Shown: positions 1-42,874 of the stretch, in pieces
Position numbering within the stretch: the first letter of the stretch is position 1
Layout of the letters: every line of letters starts with the position of its first letter
Source: a virus
IMG/VR virus record: IMGVR_UViG_3300027111_000003
Direction: 5' to 3' (one strand)
DNA: 42,874 nt
Program-made: the position numbers and the translations under genes
The notes under the pieces: generated by a model
Seen by the model: only the letters and a program-made list of their open reading frames with translations
What the model was told of the DNA's origin: nothing
Databases searched by the model: none

Positions 1-46
1 GATTTAGGTTCTTCCGTGTTTTCTCTCCGGTAAAGAAGACAATAAA

Positions 47-79
47 CTCAAGGTCCTAGCAAACCTTGGGTTTTTCTTT
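47..79 (+). terminator. Intrinsic terminator upstream of the RNAP gene region
   Basis: Stem CTCAAGGT/ACCTTGGG (8 bp including one G-U) with an 8-nt loop, followed by TTTTTCTTT. It lies about 100 bp downstream of tRNA-Leu in the circular map. A duplicate copy sits at 42794-42826. Confidence 0.75.
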
Positions 80-83
80 GCCC

Positions 84-106
84 TAAATATCTTCTGTATC
101 GGAGAG
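84..106 (+). promoter_or_regulatory. Family-A-type 23-bp motif (variant): TAAATATCTTCTGTATC|GGAGAGA
   Basis: A/T-rich 5' end, a pyrimidine block and a GGAGAGA start region. The 11-mer TATCGGAGAGA recurs at 39492-39502. A degenerate second copy, CTGCGATAGCGGAG, lies at 108-121. Confidence 0.4.
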
Positions 107-147
107 ACTGCGATAGCGGAGTGCCACGTTTTCTGGAGGCTAATCAG

Positions 148-368: not shown

Positions 369-391
369 AATTACCCCTCCATACAGCACAT
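369..391 (+). promoter_or_regulatory. Family-B phage promoter candidate B1 (AATTACCCCTCCATACA|G)
   Basis: The 18-bp stretch 369-386 is identical to 12606-12623. It has T3/T7-group architecture and lies 33 nt upstream of the RNAP ATG. Confidence 0.6.
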
Positions 392-423: not shown

Positions 424-2913
424 ATGATTACCGAAGACCTATACCAGACCGAGCTTGCCCTTGAGGAAGAAGCTCGGGGCCTGACGATCCAGCGGTTCCA
501 CAGAGAGCATCTCAAGGGAACCTTAGAGGAAACCTTCAGTGAGACCTTTCTTGGTTCTCATCTAATCGGAAACTACCTAGTCCCTTACACTCAGGGCATC
601 TCTGAGTGGCTAAGGGCCTCCAATTCAGGCAAGGCAGGAAGGCGTAGTAGAGCTGCTGTCTTGATCGAACACGTCGATCCGGCGCTCCTCGCCTTCCTGA
701 TGCTGAAAGCCATCCTCAACAAGGTGGGTGTCTACCACGAGGGCAAGTCTTGCTCGTTCACCGGCCTAGCCATCTACGGCGCGGGTCTGGTGCACGACGA
801 GCTCCGCCTCCGGGAGTTCGACGCCGAACACGCCAAGTTGTCTAAGCGCATCCACGCCGACTTCGCCAGCCGCGAGCTGACCAGGTCGAAGCGTGAGGAG
901 TACATGCAGAAGGTCTTCGAGAAGCACGACATGGAATGGTCGGTGTGGACGAAGACCGAGATGGTGCAAGTAGGCACGGCGCTCCTGGATGTCTTCCGGG
1001 CCGTCACGGGTGACATCGAGATCATCACCGAGGGAAGCGGCAAGGGGAAGCGGGACGTCGTCCAGCCCTCCCTCGGCCTCCTCCAGGCGGTCGAGATGAC
1101 CTCGGATCACTGCGAGGCTCTCTTCACCACCTACTTCCCGACCGTCATACCGCCCCGTCCGTGGTCGGTGGACACCCTGGAGACCGGAGGCTACCACAGC
1201 CACCACGTCACCCCGTATCCGCTCGTGAAGGCGTCCAAGAAGGCGTACCGCACGATCCTCCGGGATGCCGTGGAAGCCGGAAAGGTGTCTCGGGTCCTCC
1301 AGGCCGTGAATGGCCTCCAGGACACCCGGTGGTGCATCAATGTCCGAGCTCTGGACGCCATCGAGGCTGTCTACGAGCGCAACATCCCTTGCGGCAAGCT
1401 CCCCCGAGCCGACCGGAAGATACCCGACCCGCCGCCGAAGTCGCTGGAGGGCCTGGACATTGACCACCCTGACGTGAAAGCCTACCGCGTATACTGCTTC
1501 GGCGTTCATGAGAACAACCGGCGCATCATTGGCAAGCGCGTCATGGCGCAGCGAGCCTTCCACCTGGCCCGTAAGTTCTCTCAGTTCGAGGCCATCTACT
1601 TTCCACATGACCTCGACAGCCGGGGCAGGGCTTATCCCAAGCCGTCCGGCCTTAACCCTCAAGGACCCGATTATGTCAAAGGCATCCTTCAGTTTGCGGA
1701 GGCCAAAAGTCTCGGGCAAAGCGGCCTCTTCTGGCTGGGAGTGCACGGAGCTAACTGTTATGGGGAGGACAAGCTACCTCTGGACCAACGCTCGACTTGG
1801 GCGCGAGATAATTTGGAGCTCGCCCGACGTGTGGCCCGGAACCCACTGCAAGAACTCTCATGGACTCGATGTGATAACCCTGTCCAGTTCCTCGCGTGGT
1901 GCTTCGAGTGGGCAGAAGCCCATTCCCTCCAAGACCCGACCACGTACCGGTCGCGACTCCATGTAGACCTCGATGCAACCTGCTCCGGCCTCCAGCACTT
2001 CTCGGCTATGCTCCGGGACAAGGTTGGCGGCTTCCACGTCAACATGACGCCCAACGATGTCCGCCAGGATGTCTACGGGGCCGTCGCCAAGGAAGCGATC
2101 AAGCTGATCGATGCTGACGAGGACGAGGAGAAGGTAACCCTCGCCGACGCCTGGAGAACCTTCGGGATGACCCGGAGCACGACCAAGCGATCGGTGATGG
2201 TCAAGCCCTATGCTGGCACCCGCCAGTCTTGCACGAACTATGTCTCCGAAGCCGTCGAGGACGCCCTGAAAGATGGCGTAGCCCTCCCGGTTCCCCGAGA
2301 GCTCATGTGGGAGTTCAAGATGTACGGGGCCGACAAGGTGTGGAAGGCAATCCCAAAGGTTGTCGTCGCCGCAGACGGGGCCATGCAATGGCTCATGGCG
2401 ATCTCACGCCTGGTCGGTAGGTCACAGCCTAGCCAACGCCGGATCGAATGGGTGACCCCCCTGGGGCTCCCGGTGCACCAGTACAAGTTCGACACCCGGT
2501 CCCGCAGGGTCGAGACGTTCTTTGATGGCGCTCGCATCCAGCCCCGGATCACCGAGGACCTCGATAGCCTCGATCCGAGACAGATGGCTACCTCGGTGGC
2601 CCCCTCGTTCGTCCACTCGCTCGACGCTTGCCACCTCCAGGCAACCCTGAGTGCCGCTATGGACGATGGCATGACCTACTTCGCGGCTGTCCACGATAGC
2701 TTCGGGGTCCATGCTGCCGATGTCGAAAGGTTCACCAGGATCATCCGAGAGCAATTCGTTCAGATGTACGAGGAGCACGACGTCCTGGCCGAGTTCCTGG
2801 AGACAGCCTCGCCGTTGATCCTGCCGGAACTTCGGGAGGAAATCCCGACGTTACCCCCTAAGGGCTCCCTGGACCTCCGGGGCATCCTTGAAAATCAGTT
2901 CTTCTTTTCCTGA
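424..2913 (+). CDS. T7-family single-subunit DNA-dependent RNA polymerase
   Basis: 829-aa ORF. Catalytic motifs are visible in the translation (DLDATCSGLQHF, AAVHDSFGVH), as is a specificity-loop region (GARIQPRI) and a C-terminal FFFS foot comparable to T7 FAFA. Confidence 0.97.
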   Translation: MITEDLYQTELALEEEARGLTIQRFHREHLKGTLEETFSETFLGSHLIGNYLVPYTQGISEWLRASNSGKAGRRSRAAVLIEHVDPALLAFLMLKAILNKVGVYHEGKSCSFTGLAIYGAGLVHDELRLREFDAEHAKLSKRIHADFASRELTRSKREEYMQKVFEKHDMEWSVWTKTEMVQVGTALLDVFRAVTGDIEIITEGSGKGKRDVVQPSLGLLQAVEMTSDHCEALFTTYFPTVIPPRPWSVDTLETGGYHSHHVTPYPLVKASKKAYRTILRDAVEAGKVSRVLQAVNGLQDTRWCINVRALDAIEAVYERNIPCGKLPRADRKIPDPPPKSLEGLDIDHPDVKAYRVYCFGVHENNRRIIGKRVMAQRAFHLARKFSQFEAIYFPHDLDSRGRAYPKPSGLNPQGPDYVKGILQFAEAKSLGQSGLFWLGVHGANCYGEDKLPLDQRSTWARDNLELARRVARNPLQELSWTRCDNPVQFLAWCFEWAEAHSLQDPTTYRSRLHVDLDATCSGLQHFSAMLRDKVGGFHVNMTPNDVRQDVYGAVAKEAIKLIDADEDEEKVTLADAWRTFGMTRSTTKRSVMVKPYAGTRQSCTNYVSEAVEDALKDGVALPVPRELMWEFKMYGADKVWKAIPKVVVAADGAMQWLMAISRLVGRSQPSQRRIEWVTPLGLPVHQYKFDTRSRRVETFFDGARIQPRITEDLDSLDPRQMATSVAPSFVHSLDACHLQATLSAAMDDGMTYFAAVHDSFGVHAADVERFTRIIREQFVQMYEEHDVLAEFLETASPLILPELREEIPTLPPKGSLDLRGILENQFFFS

Positions 2914-2914
2914 A

Positions 2915-2937
2915 ACAATCTCTACGATAACGGAGAT
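2915..2937 (+). promoter_or_regulatory. Family-A 23-bp motif (ACAATCTCTACGATAAC|GGAGAT)
   Basis: Conserved core CGATAACGGAGA. It lies immediately after the RNAP stop, and its GGAG doubles as the Shine-Dalgarno for the ATG at 2943. Confidence 0.5.
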
Positions 2938-2942
2938 AAAGT

Positions 2943-3302
2943 ATGACCACCTTCAAGCCAGGTGATAAGGTTCGCGTGAACCCCACGCAGGAAAATATCA
3001 CGTACTTTCGGGCCAACGCTCCCGGAGTGAGTATACAAGACCCCTTCACGGTAAAAGAACAGAGAGGGTACCTTTTATCATGCGAGGAACTTGCGCAGAG
3101 ACACTACGCTGACAGGTTCTATCTCGTCTCACCACCGGTCGCTGAGAAACCCCGCCAGCTCCTCACGGTTCTCCAGATGGATCGGGCTATCGCCGCCGCT
3201 GGCGGGACCCCGAGTGTCCTCGAAGAGTACCTCGATCGGCCACTCTCGGACTTCATCCAGAACGTCATGGCCCCGAACAGTCTCACCCTCAAGTACAAAT
3301 AA
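2943..3302 (+). CDS. Hypothetical protein
   Basis: 119-aa ORF whose ATG lies 7 nt after GGAG. Coding-like composition; no recognisable motif. Confidence 0.7.
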   Translation: MTTFKPGDKVRVNPTQENITYFRANAPGVSIQDPFTVKEQRGYLLSCEELAQRHYADRFYLVSPPVAEKPRQLLTVLQMDRAIAAAGGTPSVLEEYLDRPLSDFIQNVMAPNSLTLKYK

Positions 3303-3309
3303 CGGGAGA
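3287..3309 (+). promoter_or_regulatory. Degenerate family-A motif (AAATAACGGGAGA)
   Basis: ATAACGGGAGA overlaps the stop of the preceding ORF and supplies the SD for the ATG at 3318. It carries one extra G relative to the core. Confidence 0.3.
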
Positions 3310-3317
3310 CCACGCAG

Positions 3318-3803
3318 ATGCGTGCTTTGATCCTGGCGGCACTCTCCGCCCTGGTAATGACAGCATACGCATACGCAGCCCCTATACCGCCGACCTACAC
3401 GATCTCCGAGGATTTCGGAGGCCGCCTGGACGAATACGAGCACAAGTACAACCGGTGGTCCCGCGAGGGTGCCAAGGTGATCCTCGACGGCATCTGCGGG
3501 AGCGCCTGTACGGTGGTCCTCAGTACCAAGTACAACCTGGATGTCTGTGCGACGGACAGGGCCGAGGTCCTCTTCCACATGCCCTTCATGCTCGACAAGC
3601 ACATGAAGCTCGTGGACACCCCGTACAACCGGGCACTCGCGATGGTGATCTGGCACGACCATTTCCTGCGGGTCCTCCCGCCCAAGATGGCGGCTGTACT
3701 GGAGAAGAAAAAGATACCGAGCGTCTACGAAGGCGCTGAGTACAACGAGATGATCGGATGGAAAGCCCCCGATCTTTTCAAACACGTCAAACCCTGTAAC
3801 TAA
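3318..3803 (+). CDS. Secreted/periplasmic protein with cleavable signal peptide (hypothetical)
   Basis: 161 aa. The N-terminus MRALILAALSALVMTAYAYA|AP is a typical Sec signal. The mature part contains G-x-C-G-SAC and several Cys. It weakly resembles ClpP/SppA-fold periplasmic protein families, from memory only. Confidence 0.75.
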   Translation: MRALILAALSALVMTAYAYAAPIPPTYTISEDFGGRLDEYEHKYNRWSREGAKVILDGICGSACTVVLSTKYNLDVCATDRAEVLFHMPFMLDKHMKLVDTPYNRALAMVIWHDHFLRVLPPKMAAVLEKKKIPSVYEGAEYNEMIGWKAPDLFKHVKPCN

Positions 3804-3823
3804 TTCTCTACGATAACGGAGAA
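3801..3823 (+). promoter_or_regulatory. Family-A 23-bp motif (TAATTCTCTACGATAAC|GGAGAA)
   Basis: Exact core CTCTACGATAACGGAGA as at 2920-2936. It overlaps the upstream stop codon and provides the SD for the ATG at 3830. Confidence 0.5.
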
Positions 3824-3829
3824 ATAACC

Positions 3830-4033
3830 ATGTTCAGCCCGACTACCTCGTCTGCCCTCAAGGACCTCACGAAGTCCCTCGCGAAACTTCGCGCCGCCGC
3901 TTCCGCCGCCAACCGCCGCAAGGAAGCCGCCGATCGTCTTATCTGCGACCTCGTCGCCAAGTCCGAAGCCGAGAAGGCCGAGGTCGACCACGCCCTCCGC
4001 GTGGCTAGTAAGCTGTCCGATCTCCTCGCCTGA
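3830..4033 (+). CDS. Hypothetical Ala-rich helical protein
   Basis: 67-aa ORF directly downstream of a family-A motif/SD. Composition looks like a coiled coil. Confidence 0.6.
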   Translation: MFSPTTSSALKDLTKSLAKLRAAASAANRRKEAADRLICDLVAKSEAEKAEVDHALRVASKLSDLLA

Positions 4034-4057
4034 TCCCCCAATACCCATACCTTTTTT

Positions 4058-4080
4058 CTAATCCCTCCGATAACGAAGGA
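4058..4080 (+). promoter_or_regulatory. Family-A 23-bp motif variant (CTAATCCCTCCGATAAC|GAAGGA)
   Basis: TAAT + CCCTCC + GATAAC architecture, sequence-wise intermediate between families A and B. AAGGA serves as the SD for the ATG at 4087. Confidence 0.45.
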
Positions 4081-4086
4081 AATTCA

Positions 4087-4869: not shown

Positions 4870-5481
4870 ATGGCAAATCCAGTCCTGACACTCACGAAGG
4901 GTGTCGCAGTCTATCCGGCACTGAACCGCCCGGACACCAAATTCGATGAACTCGGCCAGTACAAGGCTGATGTCAAAATGAGCGCCGAGGATGCCGCTCC
5001 CTTCATCGCACGTATCCAGGCGGTCGCCAAGGAACACATGGGCAAGGTCCTTCCCAAGGCCAAGAACTCGGCCTTCGAGATGGTCCTGAACGACGACGGC
5101 GAGGAGACCGGAGAGGTCCTCTTCAAAATCCGAGTGAAGAACAAGCTCCGCAAGTCTGACGGGAAACTGTGGGACCGCCGACCGCTTATCATTGATGCCA
5201 AGAAGAATGACCTCCCGGTGGATGTCGCCATCTGGGGCGGCACCACGATGCGGGTGCAGCTAGAGGTTTACCCGTGGAACACGGGGGCCAAGAAGGGCAT
5301 CTCGCTCCAGCCGATCATGGTCCAGGTCATCGACCTGAAGACCGGGGGTGGCCGAGGTGATACCGACGCCTTCGATGAAGAAGACGGTTACGAGGCCGAG
5401 GAAGAGAACACGGTCAACAAGAACGCCTTCGACAACGAGGACGATGATGCAACCGTAGATACGGGGTCGGATGACTATTAA
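4870..5481 (+). CDS. Single-stranded DNA-binding protein (T7 gp2.5-like)
   Basis: 203 aa, positioned before endonuclease I. The acidic C-terminal tail (DNEDDDATVDTGSDDY) ends in an aromatic residue, as in gp2.5. Confidence 0.8.
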   Translation: MANPVLTLTKGVAVYPALNRPDTKFDELGQYKADVKMSAEDAAPFIARIQAVAKEHMGKVLPKAKNSAFEMVLNDDGEETGEVLFKIRVKNKLRKSDGKLWDRRPLIIDAKKNDLPVDVAIWGGTTMRVQLEVYPWNTGAKKGISLQPIMVQVIDLKTGGGRGDTDAFDEEDGYEAEEENTVNKNAFDNEDDDATVDTGSDDY

Positions 5482-12547: not shown

Positions 12548-12560
12548 CTATCGACACATA

Positions 12561-12587
12561 GAGGGTTCCTTCGGGGACCCTCTTTTT
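12561..12587 (+). terminator. Strong hairpin terminator at the end of the DNA-metabolism block
   Basis: 9-bp stem GAGGGTTCC/GGGGACCCTC with a UUCG tetraloop, followed by TTTTT. Confidence 0.85.
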
Positions 12588-12605
12588 GTTTGTCAAGTAC
12601 AAAAT

Positions 12606-12628
12606 AATTACCCCTCCATACAGAGAGA
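12606..12628 (+). promoter_or_regulatory. Family-B phage promoter candidate B2 (AATTACCCCTCCATACA|GAGAGA)
   Basis: Identical to the T3 consensus AATTAACCCTCACTAAAGGGAGA at 18 of 23 positions. It lies immediately after the terminator and ahead of the structural block. Confidence 0.65.
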
Positions 12629-17662: not shown

Positions 17663-17685
17663 AAGATCACCACACTATAGCCGCT
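17663..17685 (+). promoter_or_regulatory. Possible late promoter upstream of the capsid gene (AAGATCACCACACTATA|G)
   Basis: Contains ACACTATAG, identical to the SP6 promoter core, and shares 10 of 18 positions with family B. Single occurrence, so this is weak. Confidence 0.3.
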
Positions 17686-18821: not shown

Positions 18822-18830
18822 CACTCCATA

Positions 18831-18861
18831 GGGAGGTCCTTAATTGGGCCTCCCTTTTTTT
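18831..18861 (+). terminator. Terminator after the capsid gene (T-phi analogue)
   Basis: 9-bp stem GGGAGGTCC/GGGCCTCCC with a 6-nt loop, followed by TTTTTTT. Confidence 0.85.
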
Positions 18862-33163: not shown

Positions 33164-33200
33164 GACAAGGAAAGGGGAGACAAAAGTGAAGACAAGTCTG

Positions 33201-33230
33201 TTGACTTCTTCTACTCTTCTGTGCTACCCT
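33201..33230 (+). promoter_or_regulatory. Host-type promoter candidate P1 (TTGACT-N18-TACCCT)
   Basis: CTGTTGACTTC is shared with P2. First of three TTGACTTC elements. Confidence 0.4.
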
Positions 33231-33347
33231 ATCTAACTTAAAGATAACTTAGAGACATCCTAGGTTATCTTAGGTTTATTACTAGTTAGATAAGAGTAGT
33301 ATAATATCTTAGGTTACCCCAGAGGTTCCCCCGGAGATAACTTAGAG
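33211..33347. repeat. A+T-rich repeat cluster (interrupted inverted repeat and ATCTTAGGTT / GATAACTTAGAG direct repeats)
   Basis: CTACTCTT...ATCTAACT (33211-38) pairs with AGTTAGATAAGAGTAG (33284-99). ATCTTAGGTT occurs at 33267-76 and 33306-15. GATAACTTAGAG occurs at 33243-54 and 33336-47. Confidence 0.85.
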
Positions 33348-33441
33348 TGAACCACGAGTTCCCTCCGGGTTCCTCCGACGGGCTTCCTACTACTCTCTCC
33401 CATACTTGGTTTGATGTATCGATTTACTTTCCCCCAGAGAG

Positions 33442-33470
33442 CCCTCAGGAGTCCCTCAGGGACCCTCTGG
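33442..33470. repeat. Three helically phased copies of CCCTCAGG/CCCTCTGG (10-11 bp spacing)
   Basis: Copies at 33442-49, 33453-60 and 33463-70. This is the reverse complement of the motif in the array at 33850-33941. Confidence 0.85.
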
Positions 33471-33849
33471 GCTACCACCGTAGCCGAGCACCCCCAGAAC
33501 GCTCTCCACGGGCTCCTGTGGGCGATTACGGGGCACATGGAGGTGCACCCGAGGGTTACCCGGGGGAACCCCGCGACCTTTTTCTGAAAAATCTGCATCC
33601 CTGTATCATATATACCCACAACCTACAATCCCCCCGTGGCCCCCTGTAGAGCAACCTGGAGTGCCCTATACGGCACGACCAACCGGCACAGTCTCCACTA
33701 AGTGATTGATTTCATTAGGGTACACATTAGATGTAGTATCGGTTAGGGCCGACGAGGGCGGGGATAACCCCAGGTTTCCCGGGGTTTCCAGCCTTCTATG
33801 TCTATACATATTCAAGCCTCCGTGTCCCCTCCCACATTTTTTCCCTCCA

Positions 33850-33941
33850 GGGCAACCTGAGGGCACCCCGAGGGCAACCGAGAGTCCACCGCTCCCATGT
33901 CATCCGGTTCCCTCCAGGGTCACCGAGGGGTCACCGAGGGG
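33850..33941. repeat. Five 11-bp tandem units GGGYMMCCNGA (3 + 2 copies)
   Basis: GGGCAACCTGA, GGGCACCCCGA and GGGCAACCGAG at 33850-82. GGGTCACCGAG occurs twice at 33917-38. Confidence 0.85.
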
Positions 33942-34112
33942 ACTAACTATCTATCACGTTATGTTACACTCTGTAACAATTCACCTCGTAAAGCTGCTGG
34001 ATAGCAGCGTACATCCAACCAAGCATATATAGCACACGCGCATAACGCACGGTTCCAATCCTATACCGATGGCCCCTCAGCGCAGCCGCTCAAACTTTCT
34101 TCGATAAGCCTG

Positions 34113-34141
34113 TTGACTTCGATAACGGAGATATGCTTATC
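34113..34141 (+). promoter_or_regulatory. Host-type promoter candidate P2 fused to a family-A core (TTGACTTCGATAACGGAGA)
   Basis: The -35 hexamer TTGACT is directly followed by CGATAACGGAGA. A possible -10 (GCTTAT/CTTATC) lies 16-17 nt downstream. Confidence 0.45.
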
Positions 34142-34350
34142 TGTAGTCACGGTGATCGAAAGAGAAACCGGGCAGAGGTCCTCCGGGGTCTCTGAGTTCT
34201 TCGAAATCGATAGATGGTCTCTTTGAGTTACCTCAAGGTCTCCACCGGTTCACTGGGTCTCAACCGCTCAACCTGCTACGGCAAACAGAGTACTGAGAAG
34301 CTGGAAAACACGGCAGGACAACAAACCAAGAGAAAGCCTCAAAATAGGGA

Positions 34351-34378
34351 TTGACTTCGATAACGAAGCGAATACAGT
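34351..34378 (+). promoter_or_regulatory. Host-type promoter candidate P3 (TTGACT-N16-TACAGT) fused to a family-A-like core
   Basis: TTGACTTCGATAACGAAG followed by TACAGT. It has the same -10 flavour as the regulator promoter at 39906. Confidence 0.5.
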
Positions 34379-34707
34379 TAGACACAACAGAGCGGCGGCG
34401 GCAGAGCGCTAAAGCGGATCGGATGGAAACTCCGAGTGTTCTTTGAAAATCAAATAGGGAAGTGTGGACATGTCCAAAGCACGTAGTGCGGAGGGGCGGC
34501 CTGGTAAACCGCAACGGGAAACCGTGTGTCCACTACGATAACCCACGAAATGGCTCCCGCGTCCAAAGCGTCGGAGTAAGTGCAGTGCATACTAGCCACG
34601 GGTCTTAGGTCCATACTAAGTGTCCCGTGTTTCCATTACCTTCGATTGTCTTAGCCAACCGCAGCATTTGCGGTTCGTTAAAGCAATCCAACCGGGGAGC
34701 ACCTCAA

Positions 34708-34995
34708 ATGACCGTCACAATCAAAACCGATAACAAATGGAAAGACTTCAAGTACGCCAACGAGGTTCCGGCAAAGGTCCTCGCGTCACAGTTCGACCAC
34801 CTGGAGGACGAAACTGATGGTTTCATCCTATACCGTGGCCGCTGGTATCACCTTTCGGACTTCATGCGCGTTCCTGAAGGGGCGGAGGACTTGAAGGGCT
34901 GGCATGGTTACGCCGGTGATAGTTTCTTTAGTGGCGTCCTCATCAAAGTGAGCCGCGACGGCGAGCAATATATGATTGCCACGCATTTGTCCTAA
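34708..34995 (+). CDS. Early protein, hypothetical
   Basis: 95 aa from the ATG at 34708, 8 nt after GGGGAG. The track ORF starts upstream at a non-ATG codon. First gene downstream of P1-P3. Confidence 0.65.
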   Translation: MTVTIKTDNKWKDFKYANEVPAKVLASQFDHLEDETDGFILYRGRWYHLSDFMRVPEGAEDLKGWHGYAGDSFFSGVLIKVSRDGEQYMIATHLS

Positions 34996-35014
34996 TCTCT
35001 GCGATAACGGAGAG
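34992..35014 (+). promoter_or_regulatory. Family-A 23-bp motif (CTAATCTCTGCGATAAC|GGAGAG)
   Basis: Overlaps the upstream stop codon. Its downstream sequence GAGAGACACG is shared with family-B copy B2. Confidence 0.5.
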
Positions 35015-35026
35015 AGACACGCGATC

Positions 35027-35816: not shown

Positions 35817-35839
35817 CTAATCTCTCCGATTGTGAAGGG
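35817..35839 (+). promoter_or_regulatory. Degenerate family-A motif (CTAATCTCTCCGATTGTGAAGGG)
   Basis: The upstream half is identical to family A; the downstream half has diverged. Confidence 0.3.
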
Positions 35840-35849
35840 AACCTATACC

Positions 35850-36361: not shown

Positions 36362-36550
36362 ATGCCTACGATAACGGAGACAACAGGTCTCACCACAGAA
36401 GCCCTCGAAGCTGTCATCGAGGAGCTCCGCGCCAACGATAGTCCCCTGGTGCCTGGGATAACCGTGAGTAACCAGCGGCGGATACCCGTTGTGGACTTCT
36501 ATTTCCCAAGGCTGTGGGGGGGCCCACCCCGACCTCCTCGTTGTCGATGA
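36362..36550 (+). CDS. Short ORF, possibly the true N-terminus of the following large protein (frame change at a G7 run)
   Basis: Strong SD (GAGGAGAGG) 9 nt upstream of the ATG at 36362. The ORF overlaps the +1 frame ORF, which is open from 36489. G7 lies at 36516-36522. Confidence 0.35.
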   Translation: MPTITETTGLTTEALEAVIEELRANDSPLVPGITVSNQRRIPVVDFYFPRLWGGPPRPPRCR

Positions 36551-36584
36551 CATCGAGGTCCTCGGCCTCCGGGAGGTGTCCCAG

Positions 36585-38216
36585 ATGATGTACGGGGTCT
36601 CAATCCAGCACATCTACGCGGATGTCATCCCCGACGAAATTCCAACCAACATCCCCGTTGATGCAACCAAGGGTCTCACCGCCGTGACCGAAGTAACCGC
36701 AAGTGCACCTATACCGTCCACCGTAGTTACCTCCGAGGGCCGGGTCCGTCCCGCGTTGCCCGAGGGCATCCGGTATTACGACGATACGAACGACCACATC
36801 ACCATCACGGATGACGCGGGGTGCCCTGAGGGTGCCTTCTGTGATGAGAGCACGTCCACGTATGCCTATAAGTATCCCACAGACAGTAATGTGTATCGTG
36901 GGCCGTTGTATAACGGCATAACGGACCCCTCACTGTTTACAGGCGGCCAGCGCCTCCACATCCTGCGGCATCCGACACACGCCACGTATTTTAGGAGCGG
37001 GGATGACGACCACCCGATGTTGTTCTCCTCCAAGGATAACGGCATGAACCCGTGGCACGGACACTCGTGGTACTCCACCCATTGGCTGCGCTGGATTGAA
37101 CACATGCCAGCCCCATCCAAGGATCACCCTGGGCTCCTGATGTACTTTCAGACCCCTACGAAACGCGCTCGCAACATTCGCACCCCCATCAAGCCCGGGA
37201 AATACCTCAAGAAATACTTCGGCGACATTCTCGGCGAAGAGGAAATCAACGACCTCGCGGTCAAGTGGTCCAACATGGCCAGCCCCGCGAAACTCTCGGT
37301 CACCCAGGATGCCGACGAGATCGAGAGGGTCTATAAGGGCAAGCACAACGGCTCGTGCATGCACTTCGCTCATGACAGCTACGATGGCAATCAGCACCCG
37401 GCTCGTGCATATGCTGGCCCGGACCTCGCCACGGCGTACATCGGGGCGCTGGACTGCGCGGACGCACGTTGCCTCGTGTGGCCCGAGAAGAAACTCTATT
37501 ACCCGAAGTTCTACGGGGACTATCGCCGCATGGAAGATGCCCTCCAGGACGCCGGGTACACCCGTGGTCGCGAGGAGGACTTCATTGGCGCTCGCATCCA
37601 ACGCCTCCCGTACAATAAGACCTTTGTGGTCCCCTACCTCGATGTCGGCGGCTGTGTCGAAGACAACGGGGAGTATCTGGTGATTTCCTATGACGGTATT
37701 AACTGCCGGGAAACCGAGGGCCTTGCCCATACCGGACGGACTTGCGCCTATGATGGGGAACGCTACCCCGCAGACGAGATGACCTACGTACAAGATTACG
37801 GATGGGTGGCGAACGAAAACCTACACTCGTGCGGGGAGTTCTTCGAGTGCTCTGTGGTGGGTGATTGGTTCTGCGAACGTGATCGTCGGGACAGTCCCGA
37901 GGATTACCCGGTGTCCAGCGCAGCAGTGGTATACCATTCCCGCCAGATATTCTACTGCGATGCTACCGAAATGTACTACCCATTGAACATCTTCAATCCG
38001 GTTCAGATGGCTAACGGGGAAACTTGGGAGCAGGACTACTTCAATGACCACGGGGTGACCTGTGATTTCTCCAGAGATAACTACCCGTCCTCTCAGGTCA
38101 TCTACCTTGACAACGGCAAGGTGGTCGCCGACGACCTGATTGACCTGGATAACCCCGAGTATCTGGCTTTTGCTGGCCTGGATGTCTCCGTTATCGAAGA
38201 GGTAGAGGCGGCTTAA
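36585..38216 (+). CDS. Large Cys/aromatic-rich early protein, unknown function
   Basis: 543 aa from the ATG at 36585 (SD GGGAGG). Has many Cys, Trp and Tyr and a GSCMHF motif. I recall no catalytic signature for it. Confidence 0.75.
   Translation: MMYGVSIQHIYADVIPDEIPTNIPVDATKGLTAVTEVTASAPIPSTVVTSEGRVRPALPEGIRYYDDTNDHITITDDAGCPEGAFCDESTSTYAYKYPTDSNVYRGPLYNGITDPSLFTGGQRLHILRHPTHATYFRSGDDDHPMLFSSKDNGMNPWHGHSWYSTHWLRWIEHMPAPSKDHPGLLMYFQTPTKRARNIRTPIKPGKYLKKYFGDILGEEEINDLAVKWSNMASPAKLSVTQDADEIERVYKGKHNGSCMHFAHDSYDGNQHPARAYAGPDLATAYIGALDCADARCLVWPEKKLYYPKFYGDYRRMEDALQDAGYTRGREEDFIGARIQRLPYNKTFVVPYLDVGGCVEDNGEYLVISYDGINCRETEGLAHTGRTCAYDGERYPADEMTYVQDYGWVANENLHSCGEFFECSVVGDWFCERDRRDSPEDYPVSSAAVVYHSRQIFYCDATEMYYPLNIFNPVQMANGETWEQDYFNDHGVTCDFSRDNYPSSQVIYLDNGKVVADDLIDLDNPEYLAFAGLDVSVIEEVEAA
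38184..38202 (-). promoter_or_regulatory. Inverted copy of the family-A core (CTCTTCGATAACGGAGAC on the minus strand)
   Basis: The exact 11-mer CGATAACGGAG lies on the minus strand, inside the 3' end of the 36585..38216 CDS. Confidence 0.35.
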
Positions 38217-39312: not shown

Positions 39313-39483
39313 ATGGTGCGCATTTATGAAGAGTTCTGGACCCGCCAGGAGGCGGCTGAATACCAGCGGTTTTATATTACTAATTACCCGCCGAGAACCC
39401 TCGGGACTGTCCTGACGATCATGCGTGATCGCATAGCAGGTATGTGGGTTGTAAGCGGCCATCGCTTTCCCACTCCTGGATGA
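39313..39483 (+). CDS. Early protein, hypothetical
   Basis: 56 aa from the ATG at 39313, 9 nt after AAGGAGA. The track ORF begins at a GTG at 39277. Confidence 0.5.
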   Translation: MVRIYEEFWTRQEAAEYQRFYITNYPPRTLGTVLTIMRDRIAGMWVVSGHRFPTPG

Positions 39484-39502
39484 GACCTCGCTATCGGAGA
39501 GA

Positions 39503-39536
39503 ACTAGACCAGATGGACTAGTCCACTGACTTTTTT
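39503..39536 (+). terminator. Possible terminator closing the early block
   Basis: Imperfect hairpin ACTAGACC-AGAT-GGACTAGT, followed 8 nt later by TTTTTT. Confidence 0.4.
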
Positions 39537-39731: not shown

Positions 39732-39884
39732 ATGAAAATTGAATTCTACAACAGCGAAGGCGAAAAAATTCGCGTCGAAATTCTCGACACGGATGACTAC
39801 TGGGAGGCATGTGAGATCGGGCATACCTACCTAGAGGAACATCGGATAGAGGGAGCGGAGGACTTCCACCTACCCGAAGATTGA
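39732..39884 (+). CDS. 50-aa acidic ORF in a low-GC spacer (weak candidate)
   Basis: MKIEFYNSEGEKIRVEILDTDDYWEACEIGHTYLEEHRIEGAEDFHLPED. Only a weak SD. Confidence 0.3.
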   Translation: MKIEFYNSEGEKIRVEILDTDDYWEACEIGHTYLEEHRIEGAEDFHLPED

Positions 39885-39905: not shown

Positions 39906-39934
39906 TTGACGCTGTGAGAGGTGGGGTTTACAGA
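39906..39934 (+). promoter_or_regulatory. Host-type promoter for the regulator-integrase operon (TTGACG-N17-TACAGA)
   Basis: Good -35 and 17-nt spacing. It lies about 30 nt upstream of a strong SD (CAGGAGAG) and the ATG at 39966. Confidence 0.5.
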
Positions 39935-39965: not shown

Positions 39966-40343
39966 ATGGGGACCGAGAGAGACACGATTGGGCGGTTAAT
40001 TAACGCCTTGCGACTGTTCAACAGGATGGACACAAAGATGCAGGTGTCTACCATCCTTACCTTCTTAGAAGTTGCAGCCGCAGACCTGGACAAGCGAGAC
40101 CTTTCAATGAGGGAACTGGAAAAACGCATCGGGTTCACCTCGGGGGTCGCCTCCAGGAACGCCTACTACTGGGGCGAGGGTACAAAGGAAATGCGCGGAG
40201 GTCGGCAGTTGATCGACGTGCGAATGAGTCGTCAAGACCACCGACTGAGAGATTTGGTTCTAACCAACAAGGGAAGGGCCTTCCTCCACACTCTGATAGG
40301 AGAGGACAATGGCGCGGCAACGCGGGAAGAAGTACCAGGCTGA
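39966..40343 (+). CDS. MarR-type winged-helix transcriptional regulator (candidate lysogeny repressor)
   Basis: 125 aa. LSMRELEKRIGFTSGVASRNAYYW ... DHRLRDLVLTNKGRAFL fits the MarR wHTH-plus-wing pattern. It overlaps the integrase start by 35 nt. Confidence 0.65.
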   Translation: MGTERDTIGRLINALRLFNRMDTKMQVSTILTFLEVAAADLDKRDLSMRELEKRIGFTSGVASRNAYYWGEGTKEMRGGRQLIDVRMSRQDHRLRDLVLTNKGRAFLHTLIGEDNGAATREEVPG

Positions 40344-41277
40344 CGTCGTAATCGACGGGGTTCGTAAGCGCCCCACCTTTGCGACGTTGGCAGAAGCAGA
40401 AGCCTATGAACGGGCTATTGCAAACGGGCTCCCCGCCGCCGGGGTGTCTACCTTCAAGAAGTTCCACGAGACCCACTTCGAGTTCATCTGGGGCGACAAC
40501 AATGCCCCCGAGGCAACTCAGTTCAACCTGGGCTCCCTGGACAAGTTCATTCCAGCCGACAAGCCGATCGCCGAGATCACCGCCCCTTACATCATCGACC
40601 TCGTGTCGCGGATGAAGAAAACGGGTATCTCCAATGCGACGATCAATCGCCGCTTATCGGCCTTGTCGAAACTCCTGAAACACGCGGAGAAACTCGAACT
40701 CACCCGGAAGCCCCCGATAGGTTTCCTGCGGGAGAACGAGGGGCGCGACCGCGTCCTATCCCGTGTCGAGGAGCAGAAGATGTTCCAGTTCTTCGACCAC
40801 ATGGGGATGACCCTCTCGGGGGCCATCGTGCGGTTCCTCCTGTACACCGGGTGTCGCCTCGGGGAGGTCTTCACGCTCGACCGGGACCGAGTGAGCGACG
40901 GACGGGTGACCTTCCACTACACCGTTACCAAGACGAGCAAGACGCGGCTGGTGCCCCTGATAGGCCCCGCGAAGGACGCCTGGACCCGCGTGTGCGGCAT
41001 GACGAACAACCCGTATCCCTTCGCGGAGATGCCGAGGGATACTTTCAGGGACCACTGGAACCGCTTCCGGGAGCACATGGATGCCCTGGACGATCCCCAG
41101 TTCGTCCCTCACATGCTGCGGCACACATGCGCCTCGCGGCTTGTCTCGAAGGGCGTCCCGTTGCCCCAGGTCATGCTGTGGATGGGACACCGGAATATTC
41201 AAACGACCATGCGGTATTCCCATCTGGCCCCGAAGGACCTCGATGGTGCCGCAAAGGCGCTCCTGGAGGATGCGTGA
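40309..41277 (+). CDS. int: Tyrosine recombinase / phage integrase
   Basis: 322 aa. Has Arg I (YTGCRLGE), H-x-x-R (HMLRHTCASRL) and a catalytic Tyr context (GHRNIQTTMRYSHL). Confidence 0.95.
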   Translation: MARQRGKKYQADVVIDGVRKRPTFATLAEAEAYERAIANGLPAAGVSTFKKFHETHFEFIWGDNNAPEATQFNLGSLDKFIPADKPIAEITAPYIIDLVSRMKKTGISNATINRRLSALSKLLKHAEKLELTRKPPIGFLRENEGRDRVLSRVEEQKMFQFFDHMGMTLSGAIVRFLLYTGCRLGEVFTLDRDRVSDGRVTFHYTVTKTSKTRLVPLIGPAKDAWTRVCGMTNNPYPFAEMPRDTFRDHWNRFREHMDALDDPQFVPHMLRHTCASRLVSKGVPLPQVMLWMGHRNIQTTMRYSHLAPKDLDGAAKALLEDA

Positions 41278-41660
41278 TGATAACCGAGAAAGACATTAAC
41301 CGTTTGGCCTATGTCGCTTGTAGAGCATTAGACGTCCCGACTGTCTCTACCCACATGGAGGCGGTTATGGTTGCACTAAGTAGAGAGCTCCGCTCCTGCC
41401 TTCTCGATAAGCCGGAGGCGGTAGAGGCTCCCGAAGGGATGGACGACATTCTCGCCGAGCAATCCGAGGTGAATGTCCTGCGGCCCGGAGAGAAATGGAG
41501 GCTCTTCCCCAAGAAGGCGCCGGGAGAAGTGGACAGAGACCCGGTTTACCGCGAAGCCAGCCGGCAACTGAAACCGCTACGGGACGCCATGTTCTCCACC
41601 CCCGCCGATACGGACGCCGCGCAGAGCGGGGAGAGCGGCTTCAAGGCTGAACGCACCTGA
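41277..41660 (+). CDS. Hypothetical protein translationally coupled to the integrase (possible recombination directionality factor)
   Basis: 127 aa from the ATG at 41277, with an ATGA overlap on the int stop. The upstream part of track ORF 40851..41660 is an alternate frame of int. Confidence 0.5.
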   Translation: MITEKDINRLAYVACRALDVPTVSTHMEAVMVALSRELRSCLLDKPEAVEAPEGMDDILAEQSEVNVLRPGEKWRLFPKKAPGEVDRDPVYREASRQLKPLRDAMFSTPADTDAAQSGESGFKAERT

Positions 41661-41862
41661 AGTAAGCCATGAGGTTCTTCGCGTCGTGTAACTGCGCGAC
41701 CTTCCCGTACTTCTGACAATGAGCGTCCGCATTGCTTTGCGCCGCTCCAATATTCAGGTTCCCTACCATCGTGTAGGTGATCCCGGCAGAGTTCCCGGTG
41801 CCCGACCCGGCGCACCCGGACAGGCTGACTAGTGCTGCTAGGGCGATCATCGCATAGCGCAT
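41641..41862 (-). CDS. Small lipoprotein (moron candidate), the only convincing minus-strand gene
   Basis: 73 aa. MRYAMIALAALVSLSG|C is a signal peptide plus lipobox. SD GGGGGAA lies 8-9 nt upstream on the minus strand. Two Cys in the mature part. Confidence 0.7.
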   Translation of the reverse strand: MRYAMIALAALVSLSGCAGSGTGNSAGITYTMVGNLNIGAAQSNADAHCQKYGKVAQLHDAKNLMAYFRCVQP

Positions 41863-42565: not shown

Positions 42566-42650
42566 GCGGGTGTGGCGGAATTGGCAGACGCACTTGGTTT
42601 AGGTCCAAGCGCCGCAAGGCGTGGGGGTTCAAGTCCCTCCATCCGCACCA
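42566..42650 (+). tRNA. tRNA-Leu (anticodon UAG), type II with long variable arm, CCA encoded
   Basis: Manual cloverleaf. Acceptor stem GCGGGTG/CATCCGC. Anticodon stem CTTGG/CCAAG with loop TTTAGGT. Variable arm GCC-GCAA-GGC. T arm GGGGG-TTCAAGT-CCCTC. A73 followed by CCA. Confidence 0.9.
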
Positions 42651-42655
42651 AAATT

Positions 42656-42698
42656 CTTGTGCCAACGCTGTGCCAAACGGTGCCAGACACGGCACAAG
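42656..42698. repeat. Phased GTGCCA repeats (3 direct, 1 inverted) just 3' of the tRNA: candidate attP arm-type protein-binding sites
   Basis: GTGCCA starts at 42659, 42670 and 42680 (11- and 10-bp spacing). CTTGTGCC (42656-63) is inverted with respect to GGCACAAG (42691-98). Confidence 0.6.
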
Positions 42699-42747
42699 GT
42701 ATCGCCGGGAACCCCTGGAAACCCTGAGTTTCTTGGTGTTCTCAATT

Positions 42748-42874
42748 GATTTAGGTTCTTCCGTGTTTTCTCTCCGGTAAAGAAGACAATAAACTCAAGG
42801 TCCTAGCAAACCTTGGGTTTTTCTTTGCCCTAAATATCTTCTGTATCGGAGAGACTGCGATAGCGGAGTGCCAC
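42748..42874. repeat. Terminal direct repeat, copy 2 (identical to 1..127)
   Basis: Exact duplicate of the first 127 bases. Confidence 0.95.

Follow-up and report, generated by a model that had tools for sequence, protein, structure and literature searches.

A family of pseudo-palindromic candidate repressor operators in a temperate T7-like phage

The window, i.e., the whole 42,874-nucleotide stretch of viral DNA analyzed here (IMG/VR record IMGVR_UViG_3300027111_000003), contains a family of repeated motifs that is real and far above chance expectation. These motifs are probably pseudo-palindromic DNA operators, about 13 in number, that would keep a temperate T7-like prophage silent; their likeliest binder is the MarR-like protein encoded at positions 39966-40343, acting as a dimer. 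An earlier note on this DNA had suggested a second class of phage promoters and mentioned a repressor or activator operator as a fallback; it is this fallback that is favored by the symmetry of the motif and its overlap with promoters. The mapped candidate operators lie on both host-type early promoters, against the promoter of the RNAP gene, and at most gene junctions within the early and class II regions.

The repeated motif is a palindrome of 20 to 24 bp. Its symmetric consensus, derived from 39 copies in six related phages and prophages, reads A-W-T-S-N-C-T-N-C-G-W-T to the left of the center and A-W-C-G-N-A-G-N-S-A-W-T to the right, with the half-site T-S-N-C-T-N-C-G-W-T. In the count matrix of these 39 copies, base identity is retained, with two-fold symmetry, at positions ±1, 3, 4, 6, 7, and 10, and the intervening positions are free and frequently unpaired. 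Perfect CTTCGTTAACGAAG palindromes are present in the relative L002. The center of the motif is flipped to TTAT at the syntenic sites L199:12858 and L202:3009, as well as at position 38189 of the window. On the coding strand, the center is biased, with 25 ATAA versus 3 TTAT among the 39 copies. This bias is not predicted by a purely symmetric operator; it may stem in part from the common descent of orthologous copies.

All six of the copies previously described as clear (at 2915, 3801, 4058, 34992, 35478, and 36359) are indeed present and comprise the biggest repeat family found by a repeat search of the window. In an 18-mer search, all of them lie on the plus strand in the same reading direction, and allowing up to 3 mismatches yields 7 matches in the window versus 0.02 expected. 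A symmetrized 24-bp PWM, built from the relatives only and then run over the window, identified 13 sites with scores of at least 14 in 42.7 kb (∼3.0 per 10 kb) versus 0.059 per 10 kb in other T7-like loci (2.56 Mb); the maximum score in shuffled sequence averages 9.3. The PWM gave no sites scoring at least 12 either across the 19.6 kb of flanking host sequence or in the replication and late region (5446-34111), in agreement with the earlier remark that the motif is missing from the late region. An exact-pattern scan of IMG/VR returned mostly single chance matches; the only relevant one, L117, is the same contig as L003. The sites in the window, for which no strand is assigned, are as follows.

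20-43, medium site, PWM score 18.6, just inside the left end of the prophage and directly before the terminator at 44-73
86-109, medium site, score 17.2, following the terminator, with g148 and the RNAP gene downstream (the copy formerly placed at 84)
349-372, candidate operator CTCCGCTAACGGAG, score 17.9, its right end sharing positions -17 to -14 with the phage promoter of the RNAP gene
2917-2940, candidate operator, score 30.1, between the RNAP stop codon (2913) and the ATG of g2943, right half CGGAGA being the Shine-Dalgarno sequence
3803-3826, candidate operator, score 28.4, between g3318 and g3830, Shine-Dalgarno sequence in the right half
4060-4083, candidate operator, score 29.6, before g4087, Shine-Dalgarno sequence in the right half
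5422-5445, medium site, score 14.4, inside the SSB gene, at its 3' end
34112-34135, candidate operator, score 26.1, over the -35 box (TTGACT, 34113-34118) and spacer of promoter P1
34350-34373, candidate operator, score 30.4, over the -35 box and spacer of promoter P2
34994-35017, candidate operator, score 24.6, between the early genes E34708 and E35027
35480-35503, candidate operator, score 28.7, directly after the early gene E35148 (stop codon 35478-35480)
35819-35842, weak or degenerate site, score 10.5, near the null maximum of ∼9.3, before E35850
36361-36384, candidate operator, score 29.6, over the first codons of ORF 36362
38181-38204, candidate operator, score 25.0, TTAT center, in the last codons of E36585 and 67 nt before the M28-like peptidase gene
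39481-39504, weak site, score 10.1, after E39313

Three of these sites (20-43, 349-372, and 5422-5445) had been overlooked in the earlier note. The copies reported there at 34119, 34357, and 38184 are genuine, but their description as core-only is wrong, given their full-strength scores, and the minus-strand label of the 38184 copy is meaningless because the site is a palindrome. Among the copies listed as degenerate, the one at 84 is a real site of medium strength and those at 35817 and 39486 are borderline, whereas those at 108 (score 2.4) and 3287 (score -16.3) are unsupported.

Several of the sites are conserved in position. The site orthologous to 2917-2940 is retained in 5 of 5 relatives, with its palindromic positions invariant; homologs of g4087 in L199, L002, and L003 are preceded by sites orthologous to 4060-4083; and strong copies placed similarly to 5422-5445 are found at L002:4803 and L003:7198. 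Seven sites (2917, 3803, 4060, 34994, 35480, 36361, and 38181) are located at gene junctions that contain no recognizable promoter. The motif is clustered upstream of the RNAP gene and fills nearly every short intergenic gap of the early and class II regions. In these gaps, the stop codon of the upstream gene often lies in its left end, as with the TAA codons at 3801-3803 and 34993-34995, which run into the sites 3803-3826 and 34994-35017, respectively, and the Shine-Dalgarno sequence is formed by its right half. The role of GGAG as a Shine-Dalgarno sequence had been recognized previously and is borne out by the spacing, the site center being 14.5 to 15.5 nt before the ATG codons at 2943, 3830, and 4087. 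At the end of the early operon, the site 39481-39504 is followed by a hairpin (read by eye) and a T6 run.

The phage promoter proper is a different sequence. It is associated with the following features.

369-386, plus strand, phage-RNAP promoter AATTACCCCTCCATACAG, preceding the RNAP gene and predicted to drive the RNAP and class II genes
424-2913, plus strand, gene for a T7-type single-subunit RNAP, with tblastn matches to Autographiviridae RNAPs and the Pfam RNA_pol domain on identical copies
12606-12623, plus strand, late phage promoter, directly after the terminator at 12560-12583 and without an operator

The two exact copies of AATTACCCCTCCATACAG, at 369 and 12606, compare with 0.01 expected; its layout is T3-like, judging from the T3 consensus. 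Another candidate promoter, CACCACACTATAGCC at 17668, was dropped, as it occurs in a single copy, at chance level. As in the window, the palindrome adjoins the RNAP-proximal phage promoter, with overlap at -17 to -14, in all 5 relatives that have the RNAP upstream region, including L199, L002, L202, and L203 (with a degenerate core in L203; the L003 contig begins at the RNAP gene and is outside this count), and never adjoins the late promoter. In L002, the promoter sequence ATTACCCCTCC is changed to ATTAGGGCTTC, alongside the R692A, E697K, and R704M replacements in the specificity-loop region of the RNAP, and the palindrome is unaltered.

The palindrome also covers the -35 box and the spacer of two sigma70-like early promoters, P1 and P2, at 34113 and 34351. 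In the promoter scan, P2 (34351-34378) consists of TTGACT, a 16-nt spacer, and TACAGT. In both promoters, TTGACT occupies operator positions -11 to -6, an arrangement that is kept in L282 and L283, where the TTGAC and CGATAACG elements of the P1 site are conserved as well. Similar GTTGACT/ATTGACT sites are found in L284 and L288.

The predicted binder of the palindrome is encoded in the lysogeny region of the window, which includes two overlapping genes.

39966-40343, plus strand, MarR-like winged-helix protein of 125 aa, candidate repressor, overlapping the start of the integrase gene
40309-41277, plus strand, tyrosine integrase (Pfam PF00589, E value 1.5e-21)

The phage is temperate and integrates into the host chromosome: on one contig, an integrated copy lies beside the tig and gcv genes of the host, its junction being located after tRNA-Leu, and the prophage junction lies near position 42759 (equivalent to 12). 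A locus search with the 575-aa early protein found nothing. The MarR-like gene adjoins the integrase gene in every relative in which that region is present, and the best-conserved segment of its product is SGxASRNxYYW. Profile searches matched MarR-family PDB chains weakly, on the wing motif (E value about 1e-3, specifically 1.2e-3), and the top 14 Foldseek hits were all MarR proteins, also weak (E values of 0.16 or worse, with an AF2 model that had a pLDDT of 63.6 and a 3-sequence alignment). In the Pfam search of 20 early and class II proteins, the MarR-like protein had no match at an E value of 0.01. The wHTH protein gp7 of phage Pasto, encoded in the same position, aligns with it (hhalign, 91.6%), with a sequence identity of only ∼24%. 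Sites for MarR proteins are typically palindromic or pseudo-palindromic and ∼16 to 24 bp long, which suits a winged-helix dimer; the motif described here is a palindrome of the right length that overlaps core promoter elements. In L288 and L289, operator-like sites immediately precede the MarR-like gene; the putative promoter of this gene in the window has no clear site.

Such an arrangement suggests how the prophage could be silenced. The bound repressor would be expected to occlude the host RNAP and the phage RNAP at their respective promoters, and the operator at -17 to -14 of the RNAP-gene promoter would check an otherwise autocatalytic RNAP loop. The sites in the intergenic regions might serve as roadblocks or as cooperative anchoring sites. 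Their overlap with stop codons and Shine-Dalgarno sequences could simply reflect squeezing of a 24-bp site into minimal intergenic spacers.

Binding of the same operators by some other protein, such as a regulator from the Rhizobiales host or a small phage protein (e.g., the 50-aa product of 39732-39884), is an unlikely alternative. The case for a symmetric DNA site does not hinge on the identity of the binder, the MarR-like assignment is statistically weak, and the 50-aa gene is likewise kept across the relatives. However, the 19.6-kb host flank is devoid of the sites, and the motif tracks the clade that carries the MarR-like protein of the window, whereas Pasto, with its divergent version of this protein, has a different palindrome. 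As for the 50-aa protein, it is very acidic and therefore unlikely to bind DNA.

Another doubtful option is that the sites are bifunctional, acting in the DNA as operators and roadblocks to the T7-type single-subunit RNAP and in the RNA as hairpins that mask the Shine-Dalgarno sequences of early and class II genes. If so, the lytic program would be silenced at two levels, and the strand bias of the ATAA center, together with the overlap with ribosome-binding sites (which is also seen in Pasto, with its unrelated palindrome), would be of functional significance instead of merely resulting from genome compaction.

A purely RNA-level element, i.e., an mRNA hairpin whose 3' arm is the Shine-Dalgarno sequence and which mediates translational coupling or repression or is recognized by an RNA-binding protein, appears improbable. 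It could account for the CGGAGA or CGAAGG right halves that form the Shine-Dalgarno sequences of g2943, g3830, g4087, and their orthologs, for the frequent presence of the upstream stop codon within the left end of the motif, and for the orientation bias of the center; besides, the palindrome of Pasto similarly overlaps an annotated RBS. For some copies, the folding energy is -5 to -8.6 kcal/mol (z scores of -2.6 to -3.7), there is a small surplus of complementarity within copies (170 versus 152; P value of about 0.003), and the slight excess of covariation has a score that is reached in only 1 of 500 shuffles. However, three of the eight stem pairs (±5, ±8, and ±9) are broken in 46 to 59% of the copies, so that base identity, rather than pairing, is conserved. 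The observed pairing of 75.6%, compared to 71.4% after shuffling, is almost wholly due to column composition, and A.C mismatches on the transcribed strand outnumber G.U pairs (49 versus 23). For the copies at 4058, 36359, and 34110, folding is no stronger than that of shuffled sequences; the copies at P1, P2, and the phage promoter are in a fixed register with promoter elements; a promoter spacer would not be transcribed from its own promoter; and an Rfam search of the whole window matched only a tRNA. The hairpin was thus rejected as the primary explanation after permutation, pair counts, and folding. The hairpin noted earlier at 2915 and 3801 was a partial view of the palindrome, but its reading as an RNA structure is weak, in view of the same unpaired positions.

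The original proposal of a second class of T7-group promoters, with transcription starting at the G of CGGAGA, is highly improbable: it draws on a superficial likeness (an A/T-rich upstream part, ATAAC, and GGAGA), on the position after the RNAP gene, and on the plus-strand location of all clear copies, but the two-fold symmetry and the center flips contrast with an asymmetric promoter of single orientation, there is no common register with the T3-like promoter of this genome, the palindrome stays the same in L002 despite the changes in the promoter and the RNAP loop, and the motif extends into the upstream end of the real promoter and is missing before all late genes (5446-34111).

Reading the motif as a set of repressor operators avoids the mis-annotation of an abundant motif as the phage promoter, while the real promoter is found only twice (369 and 12606). 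It also provides a sequence-level map of how a temperate T7-like phage could hold its autocatalytic RNAP loop off. How lysogeny is controlled in Autographiviridae is still mostly a matter of hypothesis (PMC10134795), and the mapped sites make it directly testable. The operator and its predicted repressor, combined with the orthogonal RNAP-promoter pair of this phage, could also be of use in synthetic biology.

A comparable mode of control, in which a MarR-like repressor binds on either side of the promoter preceding the RNAP gene, has been put forward for temperate T7-like phages (PMC10134795, citing Boeckman et al. 2022, Virology 568:86; see also PMC11321410), and the window fits as a further predicted case of such control. 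As the model is presented in the LUZ100 paper (PMC10134795) and in PMC11321410, it shares with the window a MarR-like gene directly upstream of the integrase gene. Further shared features are a phage-specific promoter before the RNAP gene that creates a positive feedback loop, a tRNA-Leu gene adjoining the lysogeny module, and the proposed repressor sites flanking the RNAP promoter. Compared with the model as conveyed by these citing papers, the window has sites also on the host-type early promoters and at ∼8 further intergenic or gene-end positions. The operator sequence itself is clade-specific: phage Pasto has the same genomic layout but a different palindrome, TAGTCAC-N6-GTGACTA, and the window PWM found no sites in it.

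The presence of many repressor sites across short intergenic regions, in addition to the true promoter operator, resembles the stoperators of cluster A mycobacteriophages (PMC9283540). Those of the L5 gp71 type, however, are asymmetric, 13 bp long, and orientation dependent, and are bound by a monomeric two-domain repressor (PMC9283540), whereas the sites in the window are 20- to 24-bp palindromes suited to a dimer and occur only in the early and class II regions. Silencing by stoperators has been proposed to proceed via blocked elongation (PMC9283540); a comparable roadblock may operate in the window. The 23-bp promoters of the T7 group (T7, T3, and K11) are similar to the motif in their length and GGAGA-like 3' end, but the motif differs from them in its symmetry, its register, the lack of covariation with the RNAP, and its absence from the late genes. 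An analogous layout is that of the T7lac promoter of the pET vectors, where the palindromic operator of a dimeric/tetrameric repressor is likewise set against a promoter of a single-subunit RNAP. That construct is engineered, with the operator downstream of the start site, whereas in the window the arrangement is natural and the candidate operator lies over the upstream AT-rich end of the promoter (-17 to -14).

The phage is temperate. Its circular assembly (bases 1-127 recur at 42748-42874) represents a T7-like podovirus of ~42.7 kb, with the SSB and endonuclease I among its class II genes and an RNAP that is <40% identical to every GenBank phage RNAP, the nearest being those of Roseobacter CRP phages, Mesorhizobium phage Lo5R7ANS, and Rhizobium phage Pasto. 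The same phage was seen both as ~43-kb contigs and integrated within a 94-kb contig, where homology stops near window position 42759, just past the tRNA-Leu gene, and is followed by the host tig and gcvPHT genes. The main features of the window are as follows:

44-73, 12560-12583, and 18830-18855, terminators
369-386, phage promoter, first copy, preceding the RNAP gene
424-2913, single-subunit RNAP gene
12606-12623, phage promoter, second copy, after the terminator at 12560-12583 and ahead of the late genes
40309-41277, tyrosine integrase gene
42566-42650, tRNA-Leu gene

The prophage junction lies ~110 nt past the tRNA-Leu gene (window 1-127 and 42566-42759; L363:12601-12794), which places the RNAP gene of the prophage at its extreme left end, away from the early promoters. 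There, this gene is shielded by an operator-like site (20-43), the first terminator, and another site (86-109), in that order. The sole clear minus-strand gene (41641-41862), whose 73-aa product carries a lipoprotein-type signal (…LVSLSGC…), is probably a moron or exclusion gene expressed from the prophage.

Five related genomes were recovered via their RNAPs (69 to 86% identical): L199, a prophage of Rhizobiales bacterium AFS086343; the IMG/VR contigs L002/L283 and L003/L282; and the metagenome contigs L202 and L203. In L002, the orthologous sites of the repeated element are perfect palindromes, CTTCG(T/A)TAACGAAG, which changed the reading of the motif. Copies were then picked by the 8-bp core alone, CG(ATAA/TTAA/TTAT)CG; after removal of 5 probable chance or coding matches, 39 copies from six genomes gave a two-fold symmetric count matrix, A(-12) W T(-10) S N C(-7) T(-6) N C G W T / A W C G N A(+6) G(+7) N S A(+10) W T (the slash marks the centre). 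Base identity is conserved at positions ±1, 3, 4, 6, 7, and 10, while positions ±5, ±8, and ±9 are unconstrained.

The six clear copies listed in the earlier note were borne out: an 18-mer search allowing up to three mismatches returned 7 matches versus 0.02 expected, and these copies form the largest repeat family of the window. A symmetrised position weight matrix (PWM), trained on the relatives only, recognized nine strong sites (centres 2928.5, 3814.5, 4071.5, 34123.5, 34361.5, 35005.5, 35491.5, 36372.5, and 38192.5), four medium ones (31.5, 97.5, 360.5, and 5433.5), and a few borderline ones. The degenerate copies proposed at 108 and 3287 did not pass. The absence of the motif from the late region held, as no score of at least 12 was found between 5446 and 34111. 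Site density is ~3.0 per 10 kb in the window versus 0.059 per 10 kb in other T7-like loci (2.56 Mb); 19.6 kb of host flank have no site scoring at least 12.

The sites are placed with a consistent geometry. In the sigma70-like early promoters P1 and P2, the TTGACT -35 box (34113 and 34351) falls on positions -11 to -6 of the operator, which therefore spans this box and the entire spacer; P2 was also called by the promoter scan (TTGACT, 16-nt spacer, TACAGT). This arrangement is kept in L282 and L283, and similar GTTGACT/ATTGACT sites are present in the related sequences L284 and L288. The phage promoter closest to the RNAP gene shares its positions -17 to -14 with operator positions +9 to +12 in the window, and the same overlap is seen in L199, L002, L202, and L203 (the latter with a degenerate core); the L003 contig begins at the RNAP gene. 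The late phage promoter is always free of an operator, in the window and relatives alike. Sites cluster within ~400 bp ahead of the RNAP gene, with 3 in the window and 4 in L199 and L202. Other sites occupy minimal intergenic gaps, often with the upstream TAA stop within the left end, and, as had been noticed earlier, double as Shine-Dalgarno sequences, the right half reading CGGAGA or CGAAGG and the ATG following 14.5 to 15.5 nt past the centre. Symmetry, enrichment, promoter geometry, restriction to particular regions, and the temperate lifestyle of the phage are thus established by observation. What had been the fallback reading, a repressor or activator operator, is supported, and the earlier observation is largely confirmed and extended.

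Several other features were observed. The 1.5-kb non-coding stretch after the terminase gene (33164-34700), which has repeats of the GGTTACCCC/CCCTCAGGG type, is the probable location of the virion DNA ends, as it is in Pasto. It also contains a third TTGACT box (33191), this one with no operator. A well-conserved segment of ~240 nt between P1 and P2 (GTCACGGTGATCGAAA..., CACGGCAGGAC) could be a leader or small RNA. The ORFs 36362-36550 and 36489-38216 overlap in different frames around a seven-G run at ~36518, so that a single large early gene could be split here by a frameshift, either programmed or due to a sequencing error.

The motif might instead act as an RNA hairpin. A slight surplus of within-copy complementarity (reached by 1 of 500 shuffles) and the heavy skew of the centre to ATAA on the coding strand are in line with this, although part of the skew may stem from the common descent of orthologous copies. 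However, treating the motif as a helix pairs 75.6% of cells versus 71.4% with columns shuffled, so that pairing follows almost entirely from the consensus, and three of the eight stem pairs are open in 46 to 59% of copies. Mismatches of the A.C type (49) are more frequent than G.U pairs (23) on the transcribed strand, whereas selection on an RNA helix would produce the reverse. Predicted folds reach -2.7 to -8.6 kcal/mol, with 3 of the 9 tested no better than shuffled, and the asymmetric centre is inverted, reading TTAT, at syntenic sites of L199 and L202, as well as at window position 38189. An Rfam search of the whole window gave no match to the motif. All this favors a DNA site.

The phage promoter itself, AATTACCCCTCCATACAG, has exactly two copies in the window (369 and 12606, versus 0.01 expected) and resembles the T3 promoter AATTAACCCTCACTAAAG. 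The same two positions are found in each relative, wherever the sequence covers them; in L199 and L002, a third copy follows the homologue of the gene at 2943. In L002, the promoter is ATTAGGGCTTCATACAG (L002:196, 3138, and 12012), differing from that of the window (ATTAGGGCTTC versus ATTACCCCTCC), and its RNAP specifically differs at R692A, E697K, and R704M, in the region corresponding to the T7 specificity loop; the two phages thus offer naturally occurring variants of promoter and RNAP specificity as a pair. Since the palindrome is unchanged between these genomes despite the changes in promoter and RNAP, it is not read by the phage RNAP, and its interpretation as a second promoter class, put forward in the earlier note, is rejected. 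The copy at 3287 (CAAGTACAAATAACGGGAGA, window 3279-3310) is similar to the box that precedes the late promoter (GTCAAGTACAAAATAATTACCCC, near 12590); because L199 and L002 retain an operator and a phage promoter at the matching position, it may be a decayed promoter.

The candidate operator-binding protein is the 125-aa product of the MarR-like gene (39966-40343), which overlaps the beginning of the integrase gene and is kept together with it in all relatives, more distant ones included. Its best-conserved segment is SGxASRNxYYW. A Pfam search with this protein gave no match; a profile of eight homologues matches MarR-family structures on the wing motif (E ~1e-3), and the matches to a low-confidence AF2 model, though weak, are nearly all MarR proteins. 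In hhalign, the protein matches Pasto gp7, annotated as winged-helix and encoded at the same position, with 91.6% probability. The related sequences L288 and L289 have operator-like sites just upstream of the MarR-like gene. In the window, TTGACG, a 17-nt spacer, and TACAGA (39906-39934) precede the MarR-like/integrase operon without an operator, a possible host-type promoter read by eye and not called by the scan.

We infer that, in the lysogen, the MarR-like protein would bind the operators as a dimer, occluding the host RNAP at P1 and P2 and the phage RNAP at the promoter that would otherwise make RNAP expression autocatalytic; it might also stop read-through at gene junctions. Sites would be unnecessary in the late region, given that it would be silent without the RNAP.

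A scan of the Pasto genome (MT708545, L370/L371) did not find the window palindrome. Pasto has its own, TAGTCAC-N6-GTGACTA (550, 696, 1299, 3531, 5033, ~8686, ~8766, 8866, 11854, and 12368), with copies in the early region, ahead of the wHTH gene, on both sides of the RNAP gene (clustered upstream of it and immediately following it), and across a class II ribosome-binding site; the late region has no credible copy. The layouts are alike and the palindromes are not, as expected if repressor and operator co-evolve. By eye, the Pasto palindrome also resembles the T7 promoter core, so that it is at most a putative operator counterpart.

The dispersed intergenic sites might act similarly to mycobacteriophage stoperators; however, the latter are by definition asymmetric, 13 bp long, and bound by a monomeric repressor (PMC9283540), and the window sites fail on these counts. 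The LUZ100 study described the same gene order and a phage promoter before the RNAP gene (PMC10134795). The hypothesis that a MarR-like repressor binds sites flanking the RNAP-gene promoter is credited to Boeckman et al. 2022 in PMC10134795 (see also PMC11321410).
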